A stretch of 37,062 nt of DNA from a virus (Duplodnaviria > Heunggongvirae > Uroviricota > Caudoviricetes), in IMG/VR virus record IMGVR_UViG_2718218435_000004; one strand, written 5' to 3'. Position 1 is the first letter of the stretch; every line of letters starts with the position of its first letter. The notes below the pieces were generated by a model, which saw only the letters and a list, made by a program, of their open reading frames with translations, searched no databases and was not told the DNA's origin. Both the position numbers and the translations under genes were made by a program. Below, in pieces: positions 5,965-29,277 of this stretch.

Positions 5965-6020
5965 GGTTTTCTCACTTCTGAATCGGGGTTAACCGGTCAG
6001 CCAGGCTGACCGGATGAAAA

Positions 6021-6539: not shown

Positions 6540-6551
6540 CGGTCAGGCTCC

Positions 6552-9100: not shown

Positions 9101-9142
9101 TGGCACAGAGTGGACTGTCAGATTAGGCTTTACTCTGTGCCA
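9101..9142. repeat. Inverted repeat between G and the Z/fun-slot gene (11-bp arms, about 20-nt spacer)
   Basis: tggcacagagt ... actctgtgcca read directly from the sequence; no adjacent U-tract. Confidence 0.4.
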
Positions 9143-9176
9143 TAGATATGTAAGCCCACACTAGAGCTCATACAAC

Positions 9177-9704
9177 TTATTGCGGCATTTCCGGCCATTC
9201 AGGATTTGCAGGATCCACACGACTGACCAGAACACTATAGCGTTCCCATGCCTCCAGTCGACTACGCTCCTCATCTGTTGCCATATTCAGCCTGACCGCG
9301 CGCTCCAGCGGCAAAATCACGGATTCAGCTTCGGAAAGCAGAGCTGCCTTATGTAATTCCGCCAGTTTCTGCTGTTCGTCTGCCGTATAAATCCGCTTAA
9401 TCACGGCACCATCCTTAAACATCCATTTACCTGAGTCGTCAGCACGTCGGTTGGAGGTAATATCAGGAACCTCAACAACGCTAAAACCTTCAGGATTAAG
9501 CGTTGAAGCATCTCTGGTGATAGCGACAATAATATTATTTTCATCGTAAACAATCTTTATTGTGTCTGGCTGAAAGTTCTTCACTTCCTCATACCAGTTT
9601 TTTCCGTCCTCAGAGTAAAGCCAGATAACTCCGTGTTTCTTTGTTAACTCATACTGTTCCAGTGTTTTAGCGTTACCCGCTTTTATGTTCTTTAAGTGCA
9701 TCAT
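9177..9704 (-). CDS. G: Tail fibre assembly chaperone G
   Basis: 175 aa (P2 gpG is 175 aa), immediately downstream of tail fibre gene H. Confidence 0.85.
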
Positions 9705-9705
9705 A

Positions 9706-11727: not shown

Positions 11728-11737
11728 TATTCCTCAC

Positions 11738-12268
11738 TTATCCGGGGTAAACCGTAATTACATCGCCGTCATAAGCCACACCACCGGCAAACAGGTAGCC
11801 GGGAATGTCCCGGGTAATGTTCAGACCAATAAGGTGGCGGCTTGCAGGTTTGGCATCAGCAATCAGCCGTTCCATTTCCTGATACATTGCCTCTGTGATG
11901 CCGCTTTCCAGTACACCAATATCAAGCCGGAAGGTGCCGGGCGGGTCACTGTTTTCCCACCACTCCGTCACGTTGATGAGATAGCCGAGCGGCTCCACCA
12001 CACGCCGGATTGCACCTATTGTGCCTTTATGACAGTGGATGAAATAGGCATCGCGGATAACGGCGCGTTTTGTCGCTTCCGGCCACTTTTCATCCCACCT
12101 GTCGACCGAAAACGCCCACGCCAGCCACGGCAGCAGATTTGCCGGACAGGTATCCGGGTTCCACAGCTCACGAATACTGACCGGCGTTTTTTCAATTTCC
12201 GCACAGGCTTTTGCGGCGGCGACTTCAAGCGGTGATGAGCCGGTCGGCAGCAGTCGCGAATCACTCAT
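11738..12268 (-). CDS. I: Baseplate protein I
   Basis: 176 aa, matches P2 gpI in length and position. Confidence 0.9.
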   Translation of the reverse strand: MSDSRLLPTGSSPLEVAAAKACAEIEKTPVSIRELWNPDTCPANLLPWLAWAFSVDRWDEKWPEATKRAVIRDAYFIHCHKGTIGAIRRVVEPLGYLINVTEWWENSDPPGTFRLDIGVLESGITEAMYQEMERLIADAKPASRHLIGLNITRDIPGYLFAGGVAYDGDVITVYPG

Positions 12269-13169
12269 CCGAGCCTCCGGTCACGACGCTGTATTCGGTA
12301 CAGAAAGACGCCTGCGTATTGTTGAGCACGATGTCGGCCAGCGGTGCAGCCAGTTCGACACGCTGCACGCCTTCCACATGCAAAGCGGCATAAATGGCAG
12401 ACAGACGGATGTCGCGCCCCAGCCGGTGCTGTGCCGTGATGTATGCTTCCAGTTTTTTCACGGCGGCCGCGCGGATGGGTTCACTTTCGGGACCAGGGTA
12501 AAGGTAAAGCGTGGCGTTTATCTGGTATTCAACAATGGCGGCAGACTGCACGGTCACGCGGTCGGCCACCGGTCTGACGTCCTCGCCATTCAGGGCGTTA
12601 CGCACCACCGCCAGCAGGTCTTTGGATGCGACACCGTTATTCTCACGTGACAGCACAGAGATGGTGACGCAGGCCGGAGACGGACTGGTGACAGAGATAT
12701 CCGCGACACGCCCGTCAGCACTGCGACCATGATACTGATAGGCACCCACCGACCCGGCGACGCTTAAACCTTCAAACGCCTGCTGAATACGCAGACGATA
12801 ATCGGTATCAGATTCCATCACTGCCGGTGTCGGCGGGATGGTCGAATCATCTGCCGGGGTGATAGTCAGACGCGTGGTGTTGTAATTGGCACCAATCACA
12901 TCAAGGTCATTACCGGCGGCACAGGCCAGCATCACCGCCCGTGCGGCCTCATTCACACGCTGACGCCAGATAAGCTCACGATAAGCATTTTCTTCCAGCA
13001 GTTTGACGAGAGGCTCAGATTCCAGTGTCAGGGTACGGGCGACCGCCTCCTGCTGGTCTTCCGGGTAAAGGGAAATCAGTGTCGCCTTGCGTTCGGCGAG
13101 AATGGTTTCAAAGTCCAGCTCCTCGACCACATCCGGTGCGGGTAGCTGGTTCAGGTCGATAATCGGCAT
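12261..13169 (-). CDS. J: Baseplate protein J
   Basis: 302 aa, matches P2 gpJ in length and position. Confidence 0.9.
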   Translation of the reverse strand: MPIIDLNQLPAPDVVEELDFETILAERKATLISLYPEDQQEAVARTLTLESEPLVKLLEENAYRELIWRQRVNEAARAVMLACAAGNDLDVIGANYNTTRLTITPADDSTIPPTPAVMESDTDYRLRIQQAFEGLSVAGSVGAYQYHGRSADGRVADISVTSPSPACVTISVLSRENNGVASKDLLAVVRNALNGEDVRPVADRVTVQSAAIVEYQINATLYLYPGPESEPIRAAAVKKLEAYITAQHRLGRDIRLSAIYAALHVEGVQRVELAAPLADIVLNNTQASFCTEYSVVTGGSDE

Positions 13170-13173
13170 GGTT

Positions 13174-13521
13174 TCAACTCACAGGGATGGTTAACGAAAG
13201 TGGCTGGCCGGTGTCGTTGTGCTGACCGGTTAACGTGACCGTCATTCGCCCGTCAAAACTGCGCGCCGTGGTGACGGATGACAGGGTGACGCGGGGTTCC
13301 CATTTCAGCACTGCCATGTAACAGGCGACCTTAATCTGCAACTCAAGCGCCGGGGTCTGCGGCTGGTCAATCATTGACGCCAGCAACGAGCCGTAATCAC
13401 GACGCATCACCCGTGAGCCGACGGGGGTACGCAGGATATCGCCGATACTCTGGCTGATATGCTCAAGGTCAGTGACAGTCAGGCCATCACTGCGATTCAT
13501 TCCGAGATAACGCGCAGTCAT
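13174..13521 (-). CDS. W: Baseplate protein W (gp25-like)
   Basis: 115 aa, matches P2 gpW. Confidence 0.9.
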   Translation of the reverse strand: MTARYLGMNRSDGLTVTDLEHISQSIGDILRTPVGSRVMRRDYGSLLASMIDQPQTPALELQIKVACYMAVLKWEPRVTLSSVTTARSFDGRMTVTLTGQHNDTGQPLSLTIPVS

Positions 13522-14153
13522 AGAGGTCCCCCGGTTGTGCCGCCGCTGTCGCCGGGGTGTTTATGGGTATGCAGTACCTTACCGTTTGATGAGAGCTCAC
13601 CGCCGGTGTGTTCAATGTTGCCGCGCATCGTCCCGCCCTTCTGCACTTCCAGCGTGCCGGTAATCAGCCTGTTGGTGCAGACCACCTCCGGTGTGTCCAG
13701 GGTGATGCGGGTTGATGCTTTCACCATGACCACCGGCACCGTGGCAGTAACAGAATCAGAAGCCGTCACGCTGGCCGTTTTAACTCCGCTTACCGTGAGC
13801 GCGCTGGTTTCAGGTTCATACTCAATCACCGCCCCGTCAGGGAAACGGATATGCAGGGCATCCGCCGACGCAGACGGCGCGGGGTTATCGCCGGAATAAA
13901 TCCCCGGCAGAACGAACGCCGTGTCGAGTTCACCACCCACGGCCAGAATCAGCACCTGTTCCCCCACGGAAGGTGCCCACCATGTGCGCGAACGCCCGGC
14001 GCGATGGGTCAGCCACTGAAGCCAGTCGGTGCACATGCCGCCGGTCTGCACACGGCAGCGACCGGCATTAAGGTCGGTTTCGACGATAATGCCGGTGCGG
14101 ATCATGTTGCGCAGTGCGCGCGCGAGTTCCTGAATATTTGCGAGAGTGTTCAT
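13518..14153 (-). CDS. V: Baseplate spike protein V
   Basis: The ORF-track ORF begins at a non-ATG codon; the P2 gpV N-terminus MNTLANIQELARALRNMIRTGIIVETDLNAGRCRV starts at the internal ATG, giving 211 aa. Confidence 0.9.
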   Translation of the reverse strand: MNTLANIQELARALRNMIRTGIIVETDLNAGRCRVQTGGMCTDWLQWLTHRAGRSRTWWAPSVGEQVLILAVGGELDTAFVLPGIYSGDNPAPSASADALHIRFPDGAVIEYEPETSALTVSGVKTASVTASDSVTATVPVVMVKASTRITLDTPEVVCTNRLITGTLEVQKGGTMRGNIEHTGGELSSNGKVLHTHKHPGDSGGTTGGPL

Positions 14154-14236
14154 GCGTGTGAGATTGCACAATATATAAAAGTTATGCTATCTGGATTCAT
14201 TTGTAGAACGACCATACAACATTCGAGGAGAGCGTA

Positions 14237-15022
14237 ATGTTCAGTGATAATGTGACTAATGCGTGGTGGTTTATCTCTTTGTATCTATTTTTATTAATAG
14301 CATTAACATTTGTTACCTTTGGTAAAAGTAATCTTATGAGGTTTATTGCACATCATTTCAATCTTGAGTATTCAGACAGAAAGTTAAAAATGCTCGACAA
14401 AAAATGGCGCGACATTCAACTATTTAAAATAATTAACGGAATCAATGTATCAGGCATCGAAGATGTGAGAATGATACAGCAGGGGCTGATTGATGGAAAA
14501 CTAAAAACATCGTATTTTTTCCTTACTCGCTTCTGGGGTGACATAACAAAACCACCACACATAATTAAAACAACAATTGTAATTCTGGCCAGTATTATTT
14601 ATATTCTCTTCGCATGTTATATACACAATGAACAATCCGCTATAGTAAGGGATGCCATAGGTATACCATATAAAAATATGATGTACTATGTTTATAGTGA
14701 CAAAGTTCTTTTATCCTTCAAAAATAAAACGGTTGAATTTAATAAAACTTATAGCCTTGCCGATTGCAAGAGTCTGCAAAACGTATTTATAAAAGACACA
14801 CTTCCCGAGATCGCCTGCAATAAGCTCTTACAGCTAAACAAGGAGGACTCCGAATGGTTAAGTCAGGAGATTAAAGATAATAACAGCTACAGAAAAACAT
14901 TATTAATAATATCCCTAACCTATTTCATTTCAGGTCTGCTTATATTCCTGTCATATACAAAATTCCTTTACGCCAATAAGAAGGTTGTAGAATACAAAGC
15001 ATCAAATAAAAATCACTCATAA
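14237..15022 (+). CDS. Hypothetical 261-aa membrane protein (about three predicted TM helices) in the orf30 cargo slot between V and S
   Basis: ATG with a GAGGAG Shine-Dalgarno; very AT-rich; transcribed opposite to the late tail genes; hydrophobic stretches near residues 10-28, 103-123 and 218-240. Confidence 0.7.
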   Translation: MFSDNVTNAWWFISLYLFLLIALTFVTFGKSNLMRFIAHHFNLEYSDRKLKMLDKKWRDIQLFKIINGINVSGIEDVRMIQQGLIDGKLKTSYFFLTRFWGDITKPPHIIKTTIVILASIIYILFACYIHNEQSAIVRDAIGIPYKNMMYYVYSDKVLLSFKNKTVEFNKTYSLADCKSLQNVFIKDTLPEIACNKLLQLNKEDSEWLSQEIKDNNSYRKTLLIISLTYFISGLLIFLSYTKFLYANKKVVEYKASNKNHS

Positions 15023-15031
15023 ACCTCTAAA

Positions 15032-15067
15032 CATTGAGCGACCAGCATGGCCGCTCAATGTTTAATT
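15032..15067. terminator. Stem-loop between the convergent orf30-slot gene and S, possible bidirectional terminator
   Basis: cattgagcg - 11-nt loop - cgctcaatg followed by tttaatt. Confidence 0.4.
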
Positions 15068-15093
15068 GCGCATCAGCCTCTGCCTGGATAAAA

Positions 15094-15546
15094 CTAACGC
15101 TCAAGGTGAGCCAGGATAATCTCTTCAATCATCTGCACATCCTCACCGGTAAAGCCGAGCAGAGGACGCGCCGGATAATCAATTTTCTTACCGTTTTTCC
15201 GGGTTTCTTCCGACAGACCGAACTGATGCACACTGGCGATTTTCGGCGACTTCCCGCCGTAAAATTCCATTGATGCCTGTTCCGGGCTGGCGCGGATATG
15301 CAAAAAACGACTGGTGATAAGTTTCGCAAACATTTTTCGCTTAACACGACCGGCCTTTTTTCTGGCGCTCTGCTGCTGGCGTGGCGCGTAGGGTGTGCCG
15401 TCCGGGGCTTTCTGTGCCATCACCCGACGCTGCTGACTCTGACGCAGACGTTTCGCCAGTTCGGCGCTCAGTCGCCGACGCCCTGACGGTGACAGCGATT
15501 CAATAAGTCCCGCCAGCCGGTCTTCAAAACGCTTAAACTCATTCAT
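15094..15546 (-). CDS. S: Tail completion protein S
   Basis: 150 aa, matches P2 gpS. Confidence 0.9.
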   Translation of the reverse strand: MNEFKRFEDRLAGLIESLSPSGRRRLSAELAKRLRQSQQRRVMAQKAPDGTPYAPRQQQSARKKAGRVKRKMFAKLITSRFLHIRASPEQASMEFYGGKSPKIASVHQFGLSEETRKNGKKIDYPARPLLGFTGEDVQMIEEIILAHLER

Positions 15547-16006
15547 CCCACTTGCTCACCAGTTCGCCATTGATATAAAGCTCCATCGGGCGGGTGGCCG
15601 GCTCCGGCGGCGTGGGTTCCGGGATATTCTTCACATGCAGCGCACCGTCAACCTCACTGACCAGCGTGCGCTCGGTCAGCATCAGGCTGATACTGATATC
15701 AAAGCTGCTGTCATTGTTGATGTCTGCATAAAACGTGAAACCTTTTTTCTGGCCTTCGTCGGTGGTCATGATGTCGGGCTGATTTTCCCGCAGCCACGCC
15801 AGCACCGGCACGATGAGCAGGTCAAAATCACCGGTAAAGTCGGTCACAATCACATTGAGCGTGTAACGCTTTTCGAATGACAGCGACGTCGCCAGTGTGG
15901 AGGCAATACTCCCGTTATCCACGAATATCCGCAGCATCTCTGGACTGGTTTTCAGCACCGTGACGGCATCAGTCAGCGCCCTGCGCAGGCTGTCGGGTTT
16001 GAGCAT
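15539..16006 (-). CDS. R: Tail completion protein R
   Basis: 155 aa, matches P2 gpR. Confidence 0.9.
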   Translation of the reverse strand: MLKPDSLRRALTDAVTVLKTSPEMLRIFVDNGSIASTLATSLSFEKRYTLNVIVTDFTGDFDLLIVPVLAWLRENQPDIMTTDEGQKKGFTFYADINNDSSFDISISLMLTERTLVSEVDGALHVKNIPEPTPPEPATRPMELYINGELVSKWDE

Positions 16007-16259
16007 CGTTTTCGTCCTGACAGTGTTTAATCATTTTTACCTGGCTGGCACAGCGTGCCAGCGCGTTCTCAAGCTGCCGGATATCAGCACTTAAATCGCC
16101 GTTCGTCTGCGGGTCACTGCCCGGCATCGGGCAAAGGCTCACTTTCGGGCAGGCGTTGGCGACAATCACTGGCGTCGGTGCAGGCCGGACGCTGGTGCAA
16201 CCGGCGCACAGCATCAGGCAGGTCAGCACCGTACCAGCGGCGGAAATCTTCGTTTTCAT
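15969..16259 (-). CDS. lysC: LysC, Rz1-like outer-membrane lipoprotein spanin component
   Basis: 96 aa with a signal peptide and lipobox (LMLCAGC); lies in an alternative frame overlapping the 3' end of lysB and the 5' end of R, as in P2. Confidence 0.75.
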   Translation of the reverse strand: MKTKISAAGTVLTCLMLCAGCTSVRPAPTPVIVANACPKVSLCPMPGSDPQTNGDLSADIRQLENALARCASQVKMIKHCQDENDAQTRQPAQGAD

Positions 16260-16539
16260 TCAGTAACCTCGTGATGGTTTTCTCGCGCTGTGCTTCACGC
16301 TTCGCGGCGTTTTCCAGCTCCTGACGCAGTGCCACCTGCGCCAGCTCGTTTTTGTCTGCCCTGGTGAGGGCAACATGAAGCTGATTTTTCAGCATGGTGA
16401 TGGTCGTCTGCTGTTCACTGGCGACGTTATTCGCCCTGTCCAGCGAGGCGCGCAGGCTGGCATTTTTGTGTTTCACCAGAAACAGACCGGACAGCGCCAG
16501 CGATAACAACACGACCAGCACAATCATCAGCTTTGACAT
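16114..16539 (-). CDS. lysB: LysB, Rz-like inner-membrane spanin component
   Basis: 141 aa with an N-terminal TM segment and coiled-coil; matches P2 LysB. Confidence 0.85.
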   Translation of the reverse strand: MSKLMIVLVVLLSLALSGLFLVKHKNASLRASLDRANNVASEQQTTITMLKNQLHVALTRADKNELAQVALRQELENAAKREAQREKTITRLLNENEDFRRWYGADLPDAVRRLHQRPACTDASDCRQRLPESEPLPDAGQ

Positions 16540-16952
16540 GGTTCCCGCTCCTCAAGACGCTGACGGCAGGCCGTACATATCAGCCGGAAGAACAGCGACG
16601 CCACGAGATAAATCAGCGCGGTAAAAATCCACCCGGCAGCGACCAGCGAGATAAACGTCGCCACCATCACCACCAGAGCCGCTGCCCGCCTGCGCCACGG
16701 CACCGGCTGCAAAAACAGCGACTTGACAATCTTCACGGCCAGCGATTCCGGTGGCAGCTCCCGCCCGTAGCGTTCCAGCACATACTCCGTGGCATACACG
16801 CCGACACCACCGGCAACCACACAAATAACCGTCGCCAGAATCGCCCAGGTGGCGACAAAACTGACGGCCACGCTCTGCGGATAAATCAGGGACAGTGCCA
16901 GCATCAGCGCCAGCGACACGTTCAGCATCAGTGAAAGGGATAATTTCTTCAT
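16527..16952 (-). CDS. lysA: LysA, lysis-timing membrane protein
   Basis: 141 aa multi-TM protein, matches P2 LysA. Confidence 0.85.
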   Translation of the reverse strand: MKKLSLSLMLNVSLALMLALSLIYPQSVAVSFVATWAILATVICVVAGGVGVYATEYVLERYGRELPPESLAVKIVKSLFLQPVPWRRRAAALVVMVATFISLVAAGWIFTALIYLVASLFFRLICTACRQRLEEREPCQS

Positions 16953-16966
16953 GGTGTTTACTCCGT

Positions 16967-17464
16967 TTAAGCCGGTACGCCGCCAGCGGTACGCCAGACG
17001 GTGACCAGTTTTTCCAGTGAATGCTCACGCTGACCGTAACCGGCACCCGGCAGGGACGCCCAGATATTGCGACAGCGTGAAATGGCGCGCTCAATGCGTC
17101 CCGCCCGGATGTCATCCAGTGCACCGCGTTCGCGGATCAACTGAATGGCGAGTCTGTCCTGTGACAACGGACTGAAATCAGGCAGGGCAAGCTGTTTGCG
17201 ATAGTGCGGCCAGAACAGGTAAAGCTGCTGATAGCGACCGGAGGCCGTGGATTTTTCACCGCGACGGTTAAACACCTTCGCCGGTCGGCCATGCGCGAAC
17301 GGGTGGTCACTGTAGTCGGTGAAAATTTCCGGCTTCCCGTCCAGTCCGGTGACTATCACGTCATAGCCCCGGTTTTTCGTCAGCGGATGATTCGCCGTCC
17401 CTTCGGACACGGCCAGCATGTCGAGAAAGGCAGCGATATTCTGATGCGTGTTAATTACCGGCAT
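16967..17464 (-). CDS. K: Endolysin K (lysozyme)
   Basis: 165 aa, matches P2 gpK (MPVINTHQNIAAFLDMLAVSEGTANHPLTKNRGYDVIV...). Confidence 0.9.
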   Translation of the reverse strand: MPVINTHQNIAAFLDMLAVSEGTANHPLTKNRGYDVIVTGLDGKPEIFTDYSDHPFAHGRPAKVFNRRGEKSTASGRYQQLYLFWPHYRKQLALPDFSPLSQDRLAIQLIRERGALDDIRAGRIERAISRCRNIWASLPGAGYGQREHSLEKLVTVWRTAGGVPA

Positions 17465-17745
17465 TACGGTTTCCCCCTGCCCTTAAAGCGGCGCTGAATG
17501 GCAATCTCAATCACCTGATAACCGGCGATACCCAGCATGGAGCCGATACCGCACACCGCAGGCAGTGACAGGTCAGGAAACTGCACCAGAACAACACCGG
17601 CAACCATCGAGACAAAACCACCGAGCAACATGCGCCCGATAAACAGACGCGGGGTGATGGGTTCACCACCGGCAAGCACCTTGCCGACAACAATCAGCAC
17701 CCCAATCATGAAAAGCGACAGGACGCTTTTTTCTTCTGCTGTCAT
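17464..17745 (-). CDS. Y: Holin Y
   Basis: 93 aa with TM segments, matches P2 gpY. Confidence 0.9.
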   Translation of the reverse strand: MTAEEKSVLSLFMIGVLIVVGKVLAGGEPITPRLFIGRMLLGGFVSMVAGVVLVQFPDLSLPAVCGIGSMLGIAGYQVIEIAIQRRFKGRGKP

Positions 17746-17948
17746 GCGTTACTCCTGCGTATTTTCATGAAAGGAGATCACTCAATAACTTCCATCGAGA
17801 TCGGGTAATAACATTTGAACAGATCGCTGAATAACATCGATGGAGATCACTTTTGACTCATTTTGTTATTCAGTGATCTCCATCAATGTTATTGGAACTT
17901 CACAGGTGTGTTGATCTGTATCTTTTGCCATTCCGGTAAAGGATACCT

Positions 17949-19490
17949 ATGCCAACAGTTCCAATTTCTATGAGAAAACTTAAAGAAATTCTTAGGCTTA
18001 AATACGGTGTTGGACTCAGCCATCGACAAATTGGTCGTAGTCTTGCAATCTCCCCTTCCGTTGTATCCAGATATGCTAATCGGGCGGCTCAACTTGGCAT
18101 AAAGCAGTGGCCCTTACCTACAGGATGGGATGATACAAAACTAAAACATGCGTTCCTTCAGACCCAGGTTAAGATGAAGAAGCACTCTCTGCCTGACTGG
18201 GCTACAGTACACCGGGAACTGCGTAATAAATGCGTGACGCTGCAGCTACTCTGGGAAGAATACTGTGAGCGTAATCCAGGCGGTTTTTACAGCTATAACC
18301 ATTACTGCCGGATGTACCGTGAATGGCTCAAAACCACTTCACCATCAATGCGTCAGGTACATAAAGCTGGCGAAAAACTTTTCGTTGATTACTGTGGACC
18401 TACCGTTGGCGTTACCGACCCTGAGACCGGAGAAATAAGAACTGCTCAGGTCATCGTAGCTGTTCTCGGGGCATCAAGTTACACATGGGCAGAGGCCACC
18501 TGGTCTCAGCAGCTTGAAGACTGGGTGATGAGTCATGTTCGCTGCTTCCAGTGGTTGGGTGGCGTTCCTGAACTTGTTGTTCCGGACAATCTGAAAAGCG
18601 CCACATCCAGGGCATGTAAGTATGATCCTGACGTTAACCCTACCTACCAGCAGATGCTTGAGCATTATAATGTCGCAGTTTTGCCTGCGCGGCCACGTAA
18701 ACCGAAAGATAAAGCCAAAGCTGAAGTTGGCGTTCAGGTTGTTGAACGCTGGATCATGGCCCGAATCAGGCATGAGATCTTCTACAGCCTTGCATCGCTT
18801 AATCAGCGCATTCGGGAGTTGCTGGAAAGACTGAATAACAAAATAATGCAGAAGTTGGGTTATTCACGTGCAGAACTCTTCATCCAGCTTGATAAACCCG
18901 CACTGAAGCCTCTTCCTGAAGCCAGTTACAGTTACACCCTGGTGAAGAAAGTCAGAGTTCATGCCGATTACCACGTGGAAATCGACAAACATTACTACTC
19001 GGTTCCATGTTCGCTGTTAGGCCAGCAACTGGAAGCATGGATCTCCGGAGAACTGGTAAGACTCTTCAATCAGGGGCAGGAGGTTGCTGTGCACCCGCGC
19101 AAGCGTACTTATGGCTACAGTACCCGCAACGAGCACATGCCTGAAGCTCATCGACAGCATGCCACCTGGACGCCAGAGCGTCTTCTGGAATGGGCGGGGC
19201 ACATAGGCAGTGAAACTCATAGTTATGTGCTTCATATACTGAACTCTCGTCCACATCCGGAACAAAGCTATCGCTTCTGCCTTGGACTCCTGAACCTTCA
19301 TAAAAAATACAGTAAAGCCAGACTTAATGCAGCATGTGCAAGAGCTCTGAAAACAAAGGTATGGCGTCTGTCAGGTATTAAATCGATCCTGGAAAAAGGT
19401 CTGGATAAACAACCTGTTCAGGATCCAAAACCAGATCTGTTATCCACGATGGAACACGAAAACGTACGCGGCAGTGAGTATTACCACTGA
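17949..19490 (+). CDS. istA: IS21-family transposase IstA
   Basis: 513 aa; N-terminal HTH region followed by a DDE transposase core; immediately followed by istB. Confidence 0.9.
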   Translation: MPTVPISMRKLKEILRLKYGVGLSHRQIGRSLAISPSVVSRYANRAAQLGIKQWPLPTGWDDTKLKHAFLQTQVKMKKHSLPDWATVHRELRNKCVTLQLLWEEYCERNPGGFYSYNHYCRMYREWLKTTSPSMRQVHKAGEKLFVDYCGPTVGVTDPETGEIRTAQVIVAVLGASSYTWAEATWSQQLEDWVMSHVRCFQWLGGVPELVVPDNLKSATSRACKYDPDVNPTYQQMLEHYNVAVLPARPRKPKDKAKAEVGVQVVERWIMARIRHEIFYSLASLNQRIRELLERLNNKIMQKLGYSRAELFIQLDKPALKPLPEASYSYTLVKKVRVHADYHVEIDKHYYSVPCSLLGQQLEAWISGELVRLFNQGQEVAVHPRKRTYGYSTRNEHMPEAHRQHATWTPERLLEWAGHIGSETHSYVLHILNSRPHPEQSYRFCLGLLNLHKKYSKARLNAACARALKTKVWRLSGIKSILEKGLDKQPVQDPKPDLLSTMEHENVRGSEYYH

Positions 19491-19501
19491 TACGGGATCC
19501 A

Positions 19502-20251
19502 ATGATGAATCATCTTTACGAACAACTGACCGCACTTAAACTCACCGGCTTCCGTGATGCGCTTAAAAAGCAACTTGCTCAGCCGGGCACATACCAGGAG
19601 CTGGGCTTCGAAGAACGCCTGTCATTACTGACAGCAGAAGAACTAACCTGCCGTGAAAACAGGAAGGCAGAGCGTCTGATCAAACATGCACGGTTCAGAC
19701 TTAATGCTGAGTTATCAAAGCTGGATTATCGTAACAATAGAGGGCTGGACAGGGCCCTCATCCGTTCACTCAGTCAGGGAAACTGGTTAACCCTGAAACA
19801 AAATATTTTACTGACCGGGGCCACCGGCAGCGGTAAAACGTTCCTGGCATGTGCACTTGGTCATAATGCCTGCCGACAGGGATACAAGGTCTACTATTAT
19901 CGCCTTAAAGCGCTGATGGAACAGTGCTATCAGGGGCATGCTGATGGAAGATACAGCAAACTTTTGACCAGGCTGAATAATAGCGATCTGCTGCTTCTGG
20001 ATGACTGGGGGCTGGAACCTCTCTCATCAGAACAGCGTAGCGACCTGCTGGAAATAGTGGATCTGATGTACCAACGAGGCTCAATCATCGTAGTGAGCCA
20101 GTTGCCGGTGGAAAACTGGTACAAAATGATCGGAGACTCCACACATGCGGATGCCATCCTAGATCGACTGGTTCATGGCAGTATCAAGATCGAACTTAAA
20201 GGAGAATCAATGCGGAAAATACAATCTCCGTTGACCGAAGGAGATCAGTGA
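19502..20251 (+). CDS. istB: IS21-family helper ATPase IstB
   Basis: 249 aa with Walker A GATGSGKT and Walker B LLLLDDWG, typical of IstB AAA+ proteins. Confidence 0.9.
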   Translation: MMNHLYEQLTALKLTGFRDALKKQLAQPGTYQELGFEERLSLLTAEELTCRENRKAERLIKHARFRLNAELSKLDYRNNRGLDRALIRSLSQGNWLTLKQNILLTGATGSGKTFLACALGHNACRQGYKVYYYRLKALMEQCYQGHADGRYSKLLTRLNNSDLLLLDDWGLEPLSSEQRSDLLEIVDLMYQRGSIIVVSQLPVENWYKMIGDSTHADAILDRLVHGSIKIELKGESMRKIQSPLTEGDQ

Positions 20252-20304
20252 AGGTAATTTAAAAACGGTTCTGTGAAAGTGACACGAACCGATCTCCATC
20301 GATG

Positions 20305-20538
20305 TTACTCACCGATCTCCTTCACGGTAATACGCAACTCCCACAGATTGACAGTTTCAGCCACGGGCGCGGTCTGAACGTCGGGCAGTTCGACGGCGGT
20401 GCCGTGCGGCAGCACCGCACCCAGTTCAGCCAGTCCCGGATTTGCGGCGAGCACGGCCTCGACCACGCCCTCAGTGCGCCCGTAATACCGGACACAGATG
20501 GCGTCGAGCGTGTCGCCCTGTAGCGCAAAGGTCTTCAT
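20305..20538 (-). CDS. X: Tail protein X with its C-terminus altered by the IS insertion
   Basis: MKTFALQGDTLDAICVRYYGRTEGVVEAVLAANPGLAELGAVLPHGTAVELPDVQTAPVAETVNLWE matches P2 gpX (67 aa), but the reading frame now continues 10 codons (LRITVKEIGE) into the IS right end before a stop. Confidence 0.8.
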   Translation of the reverse strand: MKTFALQGDTLDAICVRYYGRTEGVVEAVLAANPGLAELGAVLPHGTAVELPDVQTAPVAETVNLWELRITVKEIGE

Positions 20539-21047
20539 CAGATTTGACTCACAATGCAGCGCGGCTTGTCCTGGATTCGCGCCACTGCCCAGCGCATATC
20601 CCGCCACAGCTCATCAATGGTGCTGTCAATGCTGTCGGCCTTCTTGTCGCCTTTGGCACTGGCATCCACGCCGCGATAACGCTCATAAAGCGATGCGGTC
20701 GCCATCGCACACACGGCGCGCTCGTAGTAAAAAACTTTGATGCTTTCACCGTCGATGTCGTCCGCCGGGACGTCCGCCAGACGCGTAAAACCGGCGGCAA
20801 TTTTCTGTTCGCGGTACTCGTACAGCTCCGCATTAGTTTCAGCCATGCCTGACTTGATGGCCTCACGCAGACGGGCGGGGGCGACGGTCTGCTCAAGGCG
20901 CATACGTTCCCGGACGCGCTTCGGGTCGATATCGGGAAAAAAGAACGTGTTTTTAATCACCGGCTCGTCGCCTGCCGGTTGCGGGATGACCACCGTACCC
21001 TCACCGGACACGGGAGCCTCCTTTCGCGGAATAATCAGCGTCATCAT
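20538..21047 (-). CDS. L: Capsid completion protein L
   Basis: Internal start MMTLIIPRKEAPVSGEG... gives 169 aa, matching P2 gpL. Confidence 0.9.
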   Translation of the reverse strand: MMTLIIPRKEAPVSGEGTVVIPQPAGDEPVIKNTFFFPDIDPKRVRERMRLEQTVAPARLREAIKSGMAETNAELYEYREQKIAAGFTRLADVPADDIDGESIKVFYYERAVCAMATASLYERYRGVDASAKGDKKADSIDSTIDELWRDMRWAVARIQDKPRCIVSQI

Positions 21048-21146
21048 GACCACCTCTGAAAAGTCGGGCGGTGGACGCCGGTGCAGTGTCAGGTGATTCA
21101 CCCTCACTGACCGGCGTGCCGCCCTGGCGCGGGGCGCATTCGGTTG

Positions 21147-21890
21147 TTAACTGGCTTTCTTTTTCGGGCGTCCACGTTTTGCCGGTGTCACGCTCCGGGT
21201 CTTACGCGGGGTACGGGTGGCCGCTTTTGGCTGCGGCTCCGTCTTCGGTTTCAGCTCCCGCTCCAGTCGTTCAATCTCTTTTTTGACGCCTGCCTGACAG
21301 TCGAGCTGTGTCGCTCGTTGCAGGTGAGCCAGCGCACCGGCGGCATCACCAGCGTCACGCAGAAACAGACCGGTGATTTTGTGCAGCTTTGCGCGCACTT
21401 CATCAGGCATGTCAGCCGTGGCTGTCAGTTCGAGGGTGTCCGTCAGCAGGCGGGTATCCACAGACTCACCGGCAGCGTGAGCGCGCATGGCCGCAAGCGC
21501 TACCTCCTCGGTGAACATGTACGGCGGGGTGCGGCGGTGTTTACCCGGCATGGTCAGACCGTATTTCAGGGCATAACGGGCAATCTCCAGCGCACCGGCA
21601 ATATCGCCGGTATCCAGACGCCACAGCATGACCGTCATCAGAATGTCATCCTGTGCGCCTTTGCCCTGCTCCAGTACGCCGTTCACCCACGGCAACCAGA
21701 ACGGCAGCAGTTCGCGTTTTTTCGCGGCCTTCAGCTCTTTTGAATAAATCGCTTTCAGTGTGCGCTGGTCTGCGGCCAGCTTAACCAGCATCTGCTCATA
21801 GACAGTTGCATGTCGCAGCGGGGCGGCTTCCCGCTGCGCGGTTATCGCTGCCGAGACCCGCATCATGTGGCGCTGTGCGGGACTCGTCAT
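21147..21890 (-). CDS. M: Terminase small subunit M
   Basis: 247 aa, matches P2 gpM; basic Lys/Arg-rich C-terminus. Confidence 0.9.
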   Translation of the reverse strand: MTSPAQRHMMRVSAAITAQREAAPLRHATVYEQMLVKLAADQRTLKAIYSKELKAAKKRELLPFWLPWVNGVLEQGKGAQDDILMTVMLWRLDTGDIAGALEIARYALKYGLTMPGKHRRTPPYMFTEEVALAAMRAHAAGESVDTRLLTDTLELTATADMPDEVRAKLHKITGLFLRDAGDAAGALAHLQRATQLDCQAGVKKEIERLERELKPKTEPQPKAATRTPRKTRSVTPAKRGRPKKKAS

Positions 21891-21893
21891 CGG

Positions 21894-22967
21894 TTACGCT
21901 CCCGGCTCTGCGGTCGCTTTAGCCGGTGTGGAAAAATCACCGACCTTGATTTTTTCCACCAGACAACCGGCGGCGTAGTCTTCCACCACGTAATCAATGT
22001 TCATTGACTCGTAGTTCTCCACGCGGTCGAGTTTCGGGTTTTCCTCAATCACGCGGCGATGGCTGTCATCCATGTAGTAGATGGACAGGTTTTCCAGCTT
22101 CGTGATGAGCATCGCATCCGCCGGGAAGTACGGGACGCGTACCGCCGGCAGGTTACCGATGCGTTTCTGGCTGATGATGACGTCAGCGGCCAGCATTTCG
22201 CTGTTGTCCTGCTCCTTGTTGACGATGGGGAAATACTTGTCCGCCAGTAGCTGACGTCCCACAATCACCACAAGGTCAGGGTCTTCCTGATACCACGGTT
22301 CAATCAGGTTGTTGGTCGCATCCATCACCAGTGCATCGAGGCTGGCATAATCACCGCCCTTACCCACGCGGATGACCTCAGAGGTGGTGTGACCTTCCTC
22401 GTCAGTAACCTTGCTCATCACGCGCGCCGGGGCTTCATTGCGGTATTTCTGCAGCCAGCCGACCGCCACATCCTGCAGCATCGGATTGCTGCTGCGGTCA
22501 GAGGTTTCGGCACGCTTCACGCCGTTAAAACCGGCCATGATGAAATCAAGGGACTGGCGTTTGATAATGGCGTTACGGACACGGAGCTGGAAATCCTGAT
22601 AACGCGCCCACAGGTCCAGCGTTTTGTAGCGGATATAAAAATCGAAGTTAATCTGGTCGCATTCGTACTTGTTTGACGCCAGCTTCGAGAAGTCCTTCGG
22701 CTGACGCTCGGTGCCACCGGCGGTGTCGGTGGTGCTGGCGATGGAGCCGGTGACACCAATACCAATTTTTTCCCCTTTCATTTCGCTGACCGGCACAATG
22801 TTGATGCGGGTCAGAAAGTCAGAGGACTCCTGCATGGTGTTCATCAGGGTCTGGGTGACCGACGGTTCAACGGTGAATTTTTTCGACACATCACCGGCGT
22901 CGATGCCGTTCAGTTCGGCAACACGGGACAGGTAAGCATTAAATTTAAAGCGGGTTTCCTGGCGCAT
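21894..22967 (-). CDS. N: Major capsid protein N
   Basis: 357 aa, matches P2 gpN. Confidence 0.9.
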   Translation of the reverse strand: MRQETRFKFNAYLSRVAELNGIDAGDVSKKFTVEPSVTQTLMNTMQESSDFLTRINIVPVSEMKGEKIGIGVTGSIASTTDTAGGTERQPKDFSKLASNKYECDQINFDFYIRYKTLDLWARYQDFQLRVRNAIIKRQSLDFIMAGFNGVKRAETSDRSSNPMLQDVAVGWLQKYRNEAPARVMSKVTDEEGHTTSEVIRVGKGGDYASLDALVMDATNNLIEPWYQEDPDLVVIVGRQLLADKYFPIVNKEQDNSEMLAADVIISQKRIGNLPAVRVPYFPADAMLITKLENLSIYYMDDSHRRVIEENPKLDRVENYESMNIDYVVEDYAAGCLVEKIKVGDFSTPAKATAEPGA

Positions 22968-23025
22968 AGTTTTTCCTGAAATTAAGGGTTAATCGTGAAG
23001 GTTTTCCCGGACTGACTGACGCCGG

Positions 23026-23880
23026 TCAGCAGTTCGTCATCAGGGCGTCACCGCCACCACCGGTGGCCTTGCTGCGGCGCTGCTGGGTCAGACTTTCGGT
23101 GTGGTCGAGACTGTTTTTCAGGCGGGTGAATGCCTGGCTGGTTTCATCCGCCCTGTCAGTCACCTCCTGCTTAAGTGCGGAAAAGGCAGTTTCCATCTCA
23201 GAGAGGCGCTGCTCAGTGGCGCTCAGTTTTTCCTGCACATGTTCAGCAACAGCGGTCACCGCTTCATGCACGTCATTCAGACGGGCGTCATCGCTGGCCT
23301 GTTTGCGGCCAAAAATGGATTTCACCTTTTCGGTCAGGGCGGTGAACACGGTTTCAGGCAGGTCTTCAAATTCCAGCTCAACAGGCGTTGCCACTGAAAT
23401 CAGGTTTTCAGGGCTTAATTTGAAGCGGTTCAGGGGGTTGTGTTTTGCCGTGCGGCAGAATTCCAGGTATTCCGTGCCGAGGCTTGCCGGGTCATCGGTG
23501 ACGGCCAGACCCACCAGATAACATTTGCCGGTGTTGGCAAAGTTCGGCTGAATTTCCATTGAGGTGTAGACCTTCTGCGCGGCCTTGTTCATCGCGATAA
23601 GGTCATCGGTCGGGGTGATTTTCGCAAACAGCGCCCATTTGCCTTTCAGCGCCGAATCATCGTCAATCTTTTCGGCCTTCAGTTCGGCCACATCGCCATA
23701 ACGCTTAAAAATACCGTCAGGCAGGATGCCGCGCAGATGTTCCAGGTTAATGCGGCAACCATAGACTCGCGGGTCAAAGGTTTCGGCCATTTCCTGAATA
23801 TCCTGCGCACTGATGACACGCCCGTCACAGGTGTCACCCTCAACGCCGATACGAAAGAATTTTGAGACTTTTTTTGCCAT
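23026..23880 (-). CDS. O: Capsid scaffolding protein O
   Basis: Internal start MAKKVSKFFRIGVEGDTCDGRV... gives 284 aa, matching P2 gpO. Confidence 0.9.
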   Translation of the reverse strand: MAKKVSKFFRIGVEGDTCDGRVISAQDIQEMAETFDPRVYGCRINLEHLRGILPDGIFKRYGDVAELKAEKIDDDSALKGKWALFAKITPTDDLIAMNKAAQKVYTSMEIQPNFANTGKCYLVGLAVTDDPASLGTEYLEFCRTAKHNPLNRFKLSPENLISVATPVELEFEDLPETVFTALTEKVKSIFGRKQASDDARLNDVHEAVTAVAEHVQEKLSATEQRLSEMETAFSALKQEVTDRADETSQAFTRLKNSLDHTESLTQQRRSKATGGGGDALMTNC

Positions 23881-24053
23881 TGTCAGGAGTCCTGAATAGT
23901 GATTAGAGGAGTCACATGTCGGCATCAGTTTCCCGACGATACGCATCCTCCGCCATCAGTCCCGGATGGCTTATCACTGACACAACAGCACCTTAGCGAA
24001 TCGCGGGGCGCGACTCAGTAGCCTTGCCGTGTATTCATCACGGCGAGGTATTC
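23881..24053. promoter_or_regulatory. Divergent late promoter region between O and P (expected Ogr-dependent P_O / P_P)
   Basis: Intergenic region between divergently transcribed O and P, where P2 has its two late promoters. Contains dyads gtcgg-N10-ccgac (about 23918-23937) and ccgtg-N7-cacgg (about 24027-24043); no exact TGT-N12-ACA was found. Confidence 0.45.
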
Positions 24054-25826
24054 ATGACCATCACCACAGACACCACTCTTTTACACGACCCGCGTCGTCA
24101 GGCGGCGCTGCTGTACTGGCAGGGGTTTTCCGTGCCGCAGATTGCCGCCATGTTGCAGATGAAACGCCCGACGGTGCAGAGCTGGAAACAGCGCGACGGC
24201 TGGGACAGCGTTGCCCCCATCAGCCGTGTCGAAATGAGTCTGGAAGCGCGACTGACCCAGCTCATCATCAAACCGCAGAAAACCGGCGGTGACTTCAAGG
24301 AAATTGACCTGCTGGGACGCCAGATTGAACGACTGGCACGGGTAAACCGCTACAGTCAGACCGGCAACGAGGCAGACCTTAATCCGAACGTCGCTAACCG
24401 CAACAAAGGCGGGCGTCGCAAACCGAAAAAGAATTTTTTCAGTGACGAGGCCATCGAAAAGCTGGAGCAGATTTTCTTTGAGCAGTCTTTCGAATATCAG
24501 TTGCACTGGTATCACGCCGGGCTTGAGCACCGCATCCGCGATATCCTGAAATCCCGCCAGATTGGCGCGACGTTTTATTTTTCCCGCGAGGCGCTGCTGC
24601 GCGCCCTGAAAACCGGTCATAACCAGATTTTTCTGTCGGCCAGTAAAACGCAGGCGTATGTGTTCCGCGAATACATCATCGCCTTTGCCCGTCTGGTTGA
24701 CGTTGACCTGACCGGTGACCCGATTGTCCTGGGCAATAACGGCGCAAAACTAATTTTTCTCGGCACCAACTCCAACACCGCACAGAGCCATAACGGCGAC
24801 CTGTACGTCGACGAGATTTTCTGGATCCCGAATTTTCAGGTACTGCGTAAGGTGGCATCAGGTATGGCCTCACAGAGTCACCTGCGCTCGACCTATTTCT
24901 CCACCCCGTCCACGCTGGCGCACGACGCCTACCCGTTCTGGTCGGGTGAACTGTTTAACCGGGGACGCGCCAGCGCCGCCGAACGCGTGGAAATCGACGT
25001 CAGTCATAACGCCCTTGCCGGTGGGCTTCTCTGTGCGGACGGCCAGTGGCGGCAGATTGTCACCATTGAGGACGCCCTGAAAGGCGGCTGCACGCTGTTC
25101 GACATTGAGCAGCTCAAACGCGAAAACAGCGCCGACGATTTTAAAAACCTGTTCATGTGTGAATTTGTTGACGACAAGGCGTCGGTATTCCCGTTCGAGG
25201 AGCTGCAACGCTGCATGGTCGACACGCTGGAAGAATGGGAAGACTATGCGCCGTTTGCCGCCAATCCGTTCGGCTCCCGCCCGGTATGGATTGGTTACGA
25301 CCCGTCACACCGTGGCGACAGCGCCGGATGCGTGGTGCTGGCACCGCCGGTGGTGGCCGGAGGTAAATTCAGAATACTTGAGCGTCACCAGTGGAAAGGC
25401 ATGGACTTTGCCACTCAGGCGGAATCCATCCGCAAACTCACCGAAAAATACAACGTCGAATACATCGGAATTGATGCCACCGGCCTCGGTGTCGGCGTGT
25501 TCCAGCTCGTGCGCTCGTTCTATCCCGCCGCGCGCGATATCCGCTACACGCCGGAAATGAAAACCGCAATGGTGCTCAAGGCAAAAGACGTCATCCGCCG
25601 TGGCTGTCTGGAATATGACGTCAGCGCCACCGACATCACCAGCTCGTTCATGGCTATCCGCAAGACCATGACCAGCAGCGGACGCAGCGCCACCTATGAG
25701 GCCAGCCGTAGCGAGGAAGCCAGCCACGCCGACCTCGCCTGGGCGACCATGCACGCCCTGTTAAATGAGCCACTCACCGCCGGTATCAGCACCCCGCTGA
25801 CATCCACCATTCTGGAGTTTTACTGA
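24054..25826 (+). CDS. P: Terminase large subunit P (ATPase/endonuclease)
   Basis: The ORF-track ORF begins at a TTG; the internal ATG with an AGG Shine-Dalgarno gives MTITTDTTLLHDPRRQAALLYWQGFSVPQIAAM..., 590 aa, matching P2 gpP. Confidence 0.9.
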   Translation: MTITTDTTLLHDPRRQAALLYWQGFSVPQIAAMLQMKRPTVQSWKQRDGWDSVAPISRVEMSLEARLTQLIIKPQKTGGDFKEIDLLGRQIERLARVNRYSQTGNEADLNPNVANRNKGGRRKPKKNFFSDEAIEKLEQIFFEQSFEYQLHWYHAGLEHRIRDILKSRQIGATFYFSREALLRALKTGHNQIFLSASKTQAYVFREYIIAFARLVDVDLTGDPIVLGNNGAKLIFLGTNSNTAQSHNGDLYVDEIFWIPNFQVLRKVASGMASQSHLRSTYFSTPSTLAHDAYPFWSGELFNRGRASAAERVEIDVSHNALAGGLLCADGQWRQIVTIEDALKGGCTLFDIEQLKRENSADDFKNLFMCEFVDDKASVFPFEELQRCMVDTLEEWEDYAPFAANPFGSRPVWIGYDPSHRGDSAGCVVLAPPVVAGGKFRILERHQWKGMDFATQAESIRKLTEKYNVEYIGIDATGLGVGVFQLVRSFYPAARDIRYTPEMKTAMVLKAKDVIRRGCLEYDVSATDITSSFMAIRKTMTSSGRSATYEASRSEEASHADLAWATMHALLNEPLTAGISTPLTSTILEFY

Positions 25827-26860
25827 TGAGCAAGAAAAAAGGGAAAACACCGCAACCTGCGGCAAAAAAAATGACCGCCAGCGCCCCGAAAATGGAGGCA
25901 TTCACCTTTGGTGAGCCGGTGCCGGTACTCGACCGCCGTGACATTCTGGATTACGTCGAGTGCATCAGTAACGGCAGATGGTATGAGCCACCAGTCAGCT
26001 TTACCGGTCTGGCAAAAAGCCTGCGTGCTGCCGTGCATCACAGCTCACCGATTTACGTCAAACGTAACATTCTGGCCTCAACGTTTATCCCACACCCGTG
26101 GCTTTCTCAGCAGGATTTCAGCCGCTTTGTGCTGGATTTTCTGGTATTCGGTAATGCGTTTCTGGAAAAGCGTTACAGCACCACCGGTAAGGTCATCAGA
26201 CTGGAAACCTCACCGGCAAAATATACCCGCCGTGGCGTGGAGGAGGATGTTTACTGGTGGGTGCCGTCCTTCAACGAGCCGACACCTTTCGCGCCCGGCT
26301 CCGTGTTTCACCTGCTGGAGCCGGATATTAATCAGGAGCTGTACGGTCTGCCGGAATATCTCAGCGCCCTTAACTCTGCCTGGCTGAATGAGTCGGCCAC
26401 GCTGTTCCGCCGCAAGTATTACGAAAACGGCGCTCATGCCGGATATATCATGTACGTCACTGATGCCGTGCAGGATCGCAACGATATCGAAATGCTTCGC
26501 GAAAACATGGTGAAGTCGAAAGGCCGCAACAACTTTAAAAACCTGTTTCTCTATGCCCCGCAGGGGAAAGCTGACGGCATTAAAATTATCCCGCTCAGTG
26601 AAGTGGCAACGAAGGACGATTTTTTTAATATCAAAAAAGCCAGCGCCGCTGACCTGCTGGACGCGCACCGCATCCCCTTTCAGTTGATGGGCGGCAAGCC
26701 GGAGAACGTCGGGTCGCTGGGTGATATTGAGAAAGTAGCAAAGGTCTTTGTCCGCAATGAGCTTATCCCGTTACAGGACAGGATCCGCGAGATAAACGGC
26801 TGGCTCGGTCAGGAGGTCATCCGATTTAAAAACTACTCACTGGACACTGACAACGGCTGA
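25826..26860 (+). CDS. Q: Portal protein Q
   Basis: 344 aa, matches P2 gpQ; ATG overlaps the P stop (TGATG). Confidence 0.9.
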   Translation: MSKKKGKTPQPAAKKMTASAPKMEAFTFGEPVPVLDRRDILDYVECISNGRWYEPPVSFTGLAKSLRAAVHHSSPIYVKRNILASTFIPHPWLSQQDFSRFVLDFLVFGNAFLEKRYSTTGKVIRLETSPAKYTRRGVEEDVYWWVPSFNEPTPFAPGSVFHLLEPDINQELYGLPEYLSALNSAWLNESATLFRRKYYENGAHAGYIMYVTDAVQDRNDIEMLRENMVKSKGRNNFKNLFLYAPQGKADGIKIIPLSEVATKDDFFNIKKASAADLLDAHRIPFQLMGGKPENVGSLGDIEKVAKVFVRNELIPLQDRIREINGWLGQEVIRFKNYSLDTDNG

Positions 26861-26865
26861 ACATC

Positions 26866-26887
26866 GCCGCCTGCGGGCGGCTTTTTT
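26866..26887 (+). terminator. Rho-independent terminator downstream of Q
   Basis: gccgcc-tgcg-ggcggc hairpin followed by T6. Confidence 0.6.
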
Positions 26888-27029
26888 ACACCCCGTCATC
26901 ACGCCCTCACACGTTCGCCACTGTACAAAACACCCCGCAGACACACCAACGCCCCGGCAGGCCGACTAAACGCCATCACGACGCGCTCAGACGCTGAAAA
27001 AATAAAATCAGCACCACCGCCAGCGCGCA

Positions 27030-28252: not shown

Positions 28253-28254
28253 TA

Positions 28255-29274: not shown

Positions 29275-29277
29275 CTC

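Follow-up and report, generated by a model that had tools for sequence, protein, structure and literature searches.

What does the arrival of a mobile element at the junction of two late genes mean for a P2-like prophage? We studied this question in a window of 37,062 nucleotides (the whole stretch of DNA that was analysed, to which all coordinates refer), for which an earlier note, drawn from the sequence alone, had proposed that an intact IS21-family element lies exactly between the tail gene X and the holin gene Y and probably blocks the genes beyond it.

The element was confirmed, with boundaries exact to the base and a family assignment backed both by protein profiles and by identity to a named IS. 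Positions 17756-20336 (+ strand) hold a complete 2581-bp copy of ISEc12, a member of the IS21 family, with 100% identity over nucleotides 1-2581 to RefSeq-annotated ISEc12 copies; judged by sequence, this match is far beyond chance. The name comes from the RefSeq/PGAP annotation ("IS21-like element ISEc12 family") and not from the ISfinder reference entry, and ISEc12 is already named at the X/Y locus in the RefSeq record NZ_CP010157.1 (Escherichia coli strain D10, from a dog). All eight copies that we fetched from other contexts showed no mismatch to the window element, and a copy with at least 80% element coverage was found in 1366 of 5426 E. coli genomes. Both the element and its D10 locus are already catalogued; ISEc12 is a common E. 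coli IS and its insertion here is an ordinary kind of event.

The element carries istA (17949-19490, +; a 513-aa transposase, WP_001298859.1 under its RefSeq name) followed 11 nt downstream and on the same strand by istB (19502-20251, +; an AAA+ helper ATPase of 249 aa from the first ATG), the two-gene order of the IS21 family. RefSeq starts istB at 19505, which gives 248 aa (WP_001016257.1). The istA product matched the IS21-family transposase profile NF033546 with 310.5 bits (cut-off 160), as well as the Pfam domains rve (PF00665) and Mu-transpos_C_2 (PF22483), consistent with the rve-type DDE transposase of this family, while the istB product matched PF01695 (227.5 bits) and NF038214 (270 bits, cut-off 200) and its translation contains a Walker A (GATGSGKT) and a Walker B (LLLLDDWG) motif. 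A gapped end alignment placed the terminal inverted repeats at 17756-17803 (left, +; TGCGTATT..., with the first GGAGATC repeat at 17773) and 20289-20336 (right, -; ...AATACGCA, with GATCTCC repeats at 20291 and 20314). The ends, 5'-TGCGTATT...AATACGCA-3', are perfect over the first 8 nt and match at ~35 of 48 positions with a 1-nt gap. The gene lengths and the TG-initiated imperfect repeats stand as first read, apart from the RefSeq length of IstB. Like other IS21-family ends, which typically carry multiple terminal repeats, they combine imperfect TG...CA inverted repeats with repeated sub-terminal motifs. Those of the left end span 17821-17893, with GGAGATC at 17842 and an inverted copy at 17875, include a 22-nt hairpin-like pair (17830-17851/17872-17893) and are presumed IstA binding sites by analogy. 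The D10 copy is presumably active, given that identical copies occur at many sites, each with its own duplication.

We then examined the insertion site. The element is flanked by a 5-bp direct duplication, ACTCC, with a left copy at 17751-17755, which on the phage strand reads GGAGT and is the Shine-Dalgarno sequence of Y, and a right copy at 20337-20341, which on the phage strand holds the final Glu codon of X followed by the T of the TAA that used to terminate this gene. ACTCC is single-copy at the matching place in phage P2, and its length lies within the 4-8 bp of IS21-family duplications. Removal of the element and one ACTCC yields a junction identical to that of P2 over the 80 bp compared (…CTGTGGGAGTAACGCATG…), the sequence restored by precise removal of the IS being GGGAGTAACGCATG. 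Congruently, blastn against P2 aligned window 11134-17755 to P2 13213-6592 and window 20337-26931 to P2 6596-1, and the five P2 bases common to both blocks are the target duplication. Both the duplication and the restored compact junction had been predicted in the earlier note and were verified here. The insertion falls in the 3-bp X-Y intergenic gap and breaks no coding sequence, the duplication overlapping the last codon and stop of X. The X/Y junction is uninterrupted in 96 phage records, P2 among them, and in 1509 E. coli genomes, whereas the exact IS-interrupted junction was found in E. coli D10 only. P2-like genomes therefore do not normally contain the element; had they done so, this would have spoken against the insertion as first described. 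Our search for an IS-free sister of this very prophage gave no closely matching one; the restored junction region was matched at 99.4% at best. The insertion had also been called recent. The intact distal genes, its occurrence in D10 alone and the 100% identity to other copies agree with this, but a date cannot be derived, because ISEc12 copies are identical nearly everywhere and because the best IS-free match is only 99.4%.

The duplications of other ISEc12 insertions were compared, using as target-site sample eight E. coli ISEc12 copies picked by tied score. Seven other inspected insertions carry 5-bp duplications (TACCC, GATGA, CCTGC, GCGTT, CCCGC, CGCGG and ACGGG), which is the usual length for ISEc12. 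Nine duplications, namely these seven together with ACTCC and GTCAGGG, showed no shared target motif, and a scan of the GTDB representative genomes with the 34-nt IS left end for an unbiased target-site set gave no match. Some BLAST matches run 7-14 nt past the IS ends, most simply read as the extremes of thousands of matches. The copy in tssM of E. coli ST131 is flanked by the duplication ACTGC (PMC10711316).

What the insertion does to the neighbouring genes can be read directly. X (20305-20538, -; PF05489 Phage_tail_X, 7.7e-29; WP_073507057.1) has lost its stop, and the new one lies 10 codons inside the IS. Translations with and without the IS confirmed the 10-residue tail proposed earlier: the product is now 77 aa long, 67 native residues plus LRITVKEIGE, changing ...NLWE* to ...NLWE-LRITVKEIGE*. 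On the other side, Y (17464-17745, -; PF04550, 2.6e-42) is intact, with 10 bp between its ATG and the left IS end. The sequence upstream of Y on the phage coding strand is CAGGAGTAACGCATG; therefore a GGAG Shine-Dalgarno is retained, supplied by the ACTCC copy as the earlier note had it. Beyond Y, open reading frames and RefSeq annotation agree that K (16967-17464), lysA (16527-16952), lysB (16114-16539), lysC (15969-16214), R (15539-16006) and S (15094-15546), all on the - strand, are intact. This separated distal operon (15094-17464, -) is gap-free within a 6622-bp P2 alignment and has no RefSeq pseudogene flag, nor does the RefSeq annotation flag any pseudogene in the rest of the prophage. 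The genes Y-K-lysA-lysB-lysC-R-S now lie 2.58 kb away from the other genes of the PO late operon, with the IS genes in the opposite orientation.

Next, we considered transcription across the element. In P2, PO drives genes O through S and late transcription depends on an activator (Ogr) without an antiterminator; genes X, Y and K are essential. We take the divergent Ogr-dependent late promoters PO and PP to sit in the P2 O-P intergenic region, which RefSeq gene coordinates and collinearity with P2 place at 23881-24053 of the window; by this analogy it is the presumed source of the late transcript that must cross the IS. For X, Y, K, lysA and lysB of P2 the original description is reportedly that of Ziermann et al. 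1994. Between the new X stop and Y lie ~2.55 kb of untranslated antisense IS RNA. Such a length of untranslated RNA normally provokes Rho termination in E. coli (IS polarity). A simple consensus scan, which a weak outward promoter in the left end could escape, predicted no sigma-70-like promoter on the phage-sense strand across the whole IS, so an outward promoter toward Y was rejected, and the 10 bp between the IS end and the start of Y are too few for Y to have its own promoter. No strong intrinsic terminator turned up on the phage-sense strand either: within the IS this strand has seven weak terminator-like hairpins vs 3.6 ± 1.8 in shuffles, with 5-6 bp stems and poor T tracts, and intrinsic termination was rejected as the main cause of polarity since these hairpins are weak. 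In the absence of a strong intrinsic terminator, any polar block would be Rho-dependent. Windows of C-over-G excess on the antisense RNA lie directly past the new X stop and might somewhat favour Rho loading. A polar block of Y-K-lysA-lysB-lysC-R-S is plausible in this sequence context.

The rest of the prophage is closely P2-like. It is flanked by a 47-bp att repeat (window numbering 982 and 37178; k-mer script) with an adjoining integrase, as in P2-like prophages, and is collinear with P2 (Peduovirus P2) at 95-98% identity over the late, early and immunity regions, with P2-type gene names throughout. It differs from P2 in carrying the IS, in other cargo at the old/tin hotspot (a PD-Lambda-5-like system), in another gene at the Z/fun position and in the tail fibre, whose C-terminal part is divergent. 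Over the immunity region (C, cox, int), identity to P2 is ~98%. P2 prophages are not SOS-inducible, and because of the P2-type immunity mitomycin C, which the earlier note had suggested, is unsuitable as an induction test. With the IS the prophage measures 36,196 bp, 7.7% above the length of P2, and without it 33,610 bp. The packaging of P2 is sensitive to genome size, and progeny loss has been attributed in part to the enlargement of a P2 prophage (PMC9942202).

Taken together, our results make it likely that ISEc12 transposed into the D10 prophage at X/Y and most probably abolished its productive lytic cycle. IstA is a DDE transposase and IstB an AAA+ target-selecting helper. By their usual pathway a complete ISEc12 copy would have entered the P2-like prophage of E. 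coli D10, with a staggered cut on, and duplication of, the 5 bp GGAGT, in which the end of X (final codon and stop) overlaps the Y ribosome-binding site. The late PO transcript would then cross the ~2.55 kb of untranslated antisense IS RNA and undergo Rho-dependent termination. Holin, endolysin, spanins and the tail-completion proteins R and S would be strongly under-expressed, because Rho termination is to be expected and the Ogr system has no antiterminator. Packaging may suffer as well, since the genome has grown from 33.6 to 36.2 kb. The prophage would keep its immunity and accessory genes without completing a productive lytic cycle.

The insertion could also be real and only weakly polar, with read-through or an outward left-end promoter expressing Y through S and giving a viable IS-carrying phage, maybe with a delayed or smaller burst. 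Some read-through, and with it a leaky phenotype, is possible because the phage-sense hairpins are only weak and no strong intrinsic terminator accompanies them; the good Shine-Dalgarno of Y and the intact distal genes also fit such a phage. Moreover, lambdoid phages with an identical ISEc12 have been deposited as viable phages, so carriage of the element is not in itself lethal. However, in the PhiR12 phages ISEc12 has inserted outside an essential operon, in the side-tail-fibre region that lambda can do without. The weak polarity that this reading supposes also runs against the Rho termination normally seen over 2.55 kb of untranslated RNA, against the failure to predict a promoter-like site on the phage-sense strand, and against a genome 7.7% longer than that of P2. 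We regard it as unlikely.

A misjoin that placed ISEc12 inside the D10 prophage during assembly is very improbable. Each junction query matches three places in D10, repeats that could confuse an assembler, but both junctions are clean with nothing else lost or rearranged, and 5 bp that are single-copy in P2 are perfectly duplicated on either side of the element, which a misjoin would not generate. Least credible of all, with next to no chance of being right, is that ISEc12 is regular, conserved and non-disruptive cargo of this P2-like lineage. ISEc12 does occur near the same position in a few other P2-like prophages, yet at different nucleotides and with the duplications ACGGG or CGCGG, or with none and a deletion. 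These differing sites, together with the 96 phage records and 1509 genomes in which the junction is uninterrupted, refute the idea; the exact junction occurs in one genome only, a target duplication flanks the element, and we found no support for conserved carriage. Disruptive transposition into the X/Y junction remains our preferred explanation.

The other prophages raise the question of recurrence. Besides D10, in which the X/Y junction was hit, at least three other independent ISEc12 events were found in the K-Y-X segment of P2-like prophages: 26 bp into X in JCKP02, where two IS copies enclose ~35 kb of plasmid DNA; inside K in PI7; and in B20127 and OZ547450, with a truncated X and a deletion. 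These four independent events fall within ~0.6 kb and share one relative orientation, which was forced by the design of the query. That K-Y-X is a recurrent landing or retention site for ISEc12 is a tentative idea that we hold to be rather improbable. Should the recurrence exceed the expectation of a fair census, it could reflect a target preference of ISEc12 there or, alternatively, host selection for a knockout of the lysis module with immunity and defence-gene cargo kept. In the latter case P2 prophages would have their own particular path to domestication, and any non-random recurrence would inform the domestication of P2-like prophages with defence hotspots. Beyond strain-level annotation the significance is slight. 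Going by its sequence, the D10 prophage is best regarded as probably defective in lysis and in completing its tails, a point to consider when prophage induction or phage-host relations are predicted for the strain. It also exemplifies how a single IS insertion can lock a prophage in place with all reading frames unbroken.

Finally, we compared this case with known systems. ISEc12 as RefSeq annotates it, and as described in tssM of ST131 (PMC10711316), agrees with the D10 copy in its 2581-bp sequence (100%), in IstA (WP_001298859.1) and IstB (WP_001016257.1), in a 5-bp target duplication and in inactivation by simple insertion; only the target differs, tssM there and a P2-like X/Y junction in D10. 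With IS21 of plasmid R68.45, the family prototype, ISEc12 shares the istA-istB order, a DDE transposase with an AAA+ helper, TG...CA ends and several sub-terminal repeats, but it is larger (2581 bp vs ~2.1 kb, with an IstA of 513 aa vs ~390 aa). The target duplication is 4 bp for IS21 and 5 bp for ISEc12. IS21 also produces a second form of IstA, which begins at an internal start 8 codons further on; the IstA of ISEc12 has Met at positions 1 and 8. As in the classical polar mutations caused by IS1, IS2, IS4 and others in the gal and lac operons, an IS here would uncouple distal genes from their promoter, although the D10 ISEc12 breaks no coding sequence and its polarity in this orientation is a prediction from sequence context. 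As in IS-inactivated prophages, such as those of O157 carrying IS629, a single insertion would make the prophage defective.

At its X/Y junction, between tail gene X and holin gene Y, the P2-like prophage of E. coli D10 (from a dog; NZ_CP010157.1) carries a 2581-bp IS21-family element, ISEc12, on the plus strand at 17756-20336. ISEc12 copies on many chromosomes and plasmids of E. coli matched the element at 100% identity over its full length, and 1366 of 5426 complete E. coli genomes had a copy that spans at least 80% of it; all eight copies that we fetched from unrelated contexts had 0 mismatches to it. The earlier note had proposed an IS21-family element with istA and istB, and NCBIfam and Pfam matches to both genes confirmed it. 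The 513-aa transposase encoded by istA (17949-19490) scored 310.5 bits against the NCBIfam IS21-family transposase model (cut-off 160) and also matched Pfam rve and Mu-transpos_C_2, while istB (19502-20251) scored 270 bits against the model for the IS21 helper ATPase (cut-off 200) and 227.5 bits against PF01695; its translation shows both Walker motifs, A as GATGSGKT and B as LLLLDDWG. The proposed TG-initiated, imperfect terminal inverted repeats were also recovered: the element starts with TGCGTATT and ends with AATACGCA, about 35 of the 48 outermost positions are complementary if one single-base gap is allowed, and GGAGATC-containing motifs lie at 17773, 17842 and 17875 (inverted copy) in the left end and at 20291 and 20314 in the right end.

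On the phage coding strand, the P2 junction reads CTG TGG GAG TAA CGC ATG, in which X ends, 3 bp follow and Y starts. A copy of ACTCC adjoins the element at each end (17751-17755 and 20337-20341), and the two P2-matching blocks that abut the IS overlap on P2 by exactly these 5 bases, in agreement with the claimed target duplication. Removal of the element and one ACTCC restored the compact junction, as had been expected, with a sequence identical to P2 across the 80 bp compared. No coding sequence was broken; the insertion lies in the 3-bp intergenic gap and the duplication overlaps the last codon and the stop of X. The reconstructed 1-kb empty site gave an unbroken alignment with 96 phage records, P2, fiAA91-ss and pro147 among them, and with 1509 E. 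coli genomes. Filled junctions were found in D10 alone, with junction sequences 100% identical to NZ_CP010157.1, and in the phage collection the only carriers of ISEc12 were four lambdoid phages, 52-54 kb in size. The IS is thus not a normal part of P2-like genomes.

Six of the eight fetched ISEc12 copies had a target duplication, five of 5 bp (TACCC, GATGA, CCTGC, GCGTT and CCCGC) and one of 7 bp (GTCAGGG); the other two had unrelated flanks. The ISEc12 copy reported from ST131, where tssM is the target, is likewise flanked by 5 duplicated bp, ACTGC (PMC10711316). Comparison of the fetched copies revealed no motif common to the target duplications, so the placement at the X/Y junction looks like chance.

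According to the RefSeq annotation, the window extends from fieF to the end of the phage integrase gene, and the prophage inside it has its late genes on the minus strand and no pseudogene flags. Its attachment sites are a 47-bp direct repeat with copies at 982 and 37178, the second just beyond the window, and its length is 36,196 bp. P2 aligned with it by blastn in collinear blocks of 95-98% identity, and the immunity and integration region (C, cox and int) was 98% identical. The C-terminal part of tail-fibre gene H together with gene G (9101-11134) was 75-81% identical to P2 or unaligned, with flanks at 95-97%, which is the host-range mosaic usual among P2-like phages. A 299-aa protein occupies the position of P2 Z/fun (8062-8961, minus strand) in a segment unaligned to P2, and a 261-aa protein lies between S and V, where P2 has orf30 (14237-15022, plus strand, opposite to S and V); neither had a Pfam or PADLOC match. 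The old/tin hotspot (27248-30405) holds a PD-Lambda-5-like pair and, between the two, a 339-aa protein for which Pfam and PADLOC gave no hit. The D12-class adenine methyltransferase of the pair matched PD-Lambda-5_B (7e-94) and the ParB-N-like protein matched PD-Lambda-5_A (4.6e-22) over the first ~160 model positions only. Judged by these matches, the pair is a candidate PD-Lambda-5-like defence, and the set may represent that system in a split or variant version.

Having lost its TAA, X reads 10 codons into the right IS end (LRITVKEIGE*) to give a 77-aa product, also annotated by RefSeq; the IS-derived 10-residue tail described in the earlier note is therefore present. That the duplicated ACTCC still gives Y its Shine-Dalgarno sequence held as well, since Y keeps CAGGAGTAACGCATG upstream and with it GGAG at native spacing. 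The genes beyond the IS (Y, K, lysA, lysB, lysC, R and S) are undamaged, with gap-free alignments to P2, and the IS genes are directed away from Y, antiparallel to the phage late genes.

In P2, O-N-M-L-X-Y-K-lysA-lysB-lysC-R-S form one Ogr-dependent late operon, transcribed from PO, in which X, Y and K are essential, an account said to go back to Ziermann et al. in 1994 and to Christie and Calendar. With only 10 bp between the start of Y and the IS, any transcript of Y has to traverse the IS or originate within it. A consensus scan of the phage-sense strand predicted no sigma-70-like promoter toward Y within the IS. On the same strand the only terminator-like hairpins were seven weak ones (shuffled sequences gave 3.6 ± 1.8), their stems 5-6 bp long and their T tracts poor, so that the block to be expected is Rho-dependent termination of the late transcript within ~2.55 kb of untranslated IS RNA. 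Windows with C above G start directly after the new X stop, a base composition that hints faintly at such a block. With the IS, the prophage grows from 33,610 to 36,196 bp (+7.7%); P2 reportedly packages its DNA in a size-sensitive way, and P2 prophage enlargement has been cited as a contributor to progeny loss (PMC9942202). The enlarged genome and the C-terminal tail on gpX are possible further handicaps. The main rival, a leaky and still viable phage, would have intact genes from Y to S at its disposal and would have to express them through or out of the same IS; we regard it as unlikely. The prophage is probably unable to go through a full productive cycle.

DNA damage is not known to induce P2 prophages and the immunity here is of P2 type, so mitomycin C induction would be uninformative for this prophage. 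The appropriate route is derepression by P4 epsilon and delta, or by Ogr, as used in the system of PMC9942202.

Other P2-like prophages have independently received ISEc12 in this same small segment. In E. coli JCKP02 (from a yak; NZ_CP195759.1, ~1488600-1526000), two direct copies, within the stretches 4001-8426 of fetched locus L002 and 1-4400 of L003, bracket ~35 kb of F-plasmid-like DNA with hok/mok, psiA, psiB and IS91; the target is X, 26 bp into its 3' end. The same 5-bp duplication, ACGGG, is present in both outer flanks, which argues that the whole unit entered in a single event, as would be expected of a composite transposon or of replicon fusion of the IS21 type. In PI7 (E. coli, pig; L004, 1619-4200) the element lies inside lysozyme gene K, with the duplication CGCGG. 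In E. coli B20127 (L005, 1619-4200) it adjoins a truncated X, with a tail-fibre assembly gene on the other side and no target duplication, pointing to an IS-adjacent deletion; OZ547450 (H60) gave the same hit pattern, and in both the deletion extends to the tail-fibre assembly gene. Together with D10 these make four independent events within ~0.6 kb, for which enrichment beyond chance needs an all-site census. In the four lambdoid phages (Escherichia phage PhiR12_2_star, PV340551.1, L016 3652-6232; PV340549, PV340550 and PV340553), a 100% identical ISEc12 lies between a tail-fibre fragment and a tail-fibre assembly gene. Their deposits name E. coli K-12 or C as the strain on which they were grown, so ISEc12 can travel inside viable phage genomes when placed in a dispensable region.

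The element is a known, named IS with known IS behaviour, and RefSeq already names both genes at the D10 locus 'IS21-like element ISEc12 family'. IS21 itself makes a second IstA product, the 'cointegrase', by initiating 8 codons further downstream; Met is found at IstA codons 1 and 8 here (17949-17972), and by analogy ISEc12 may have the same internal-start arrangement.
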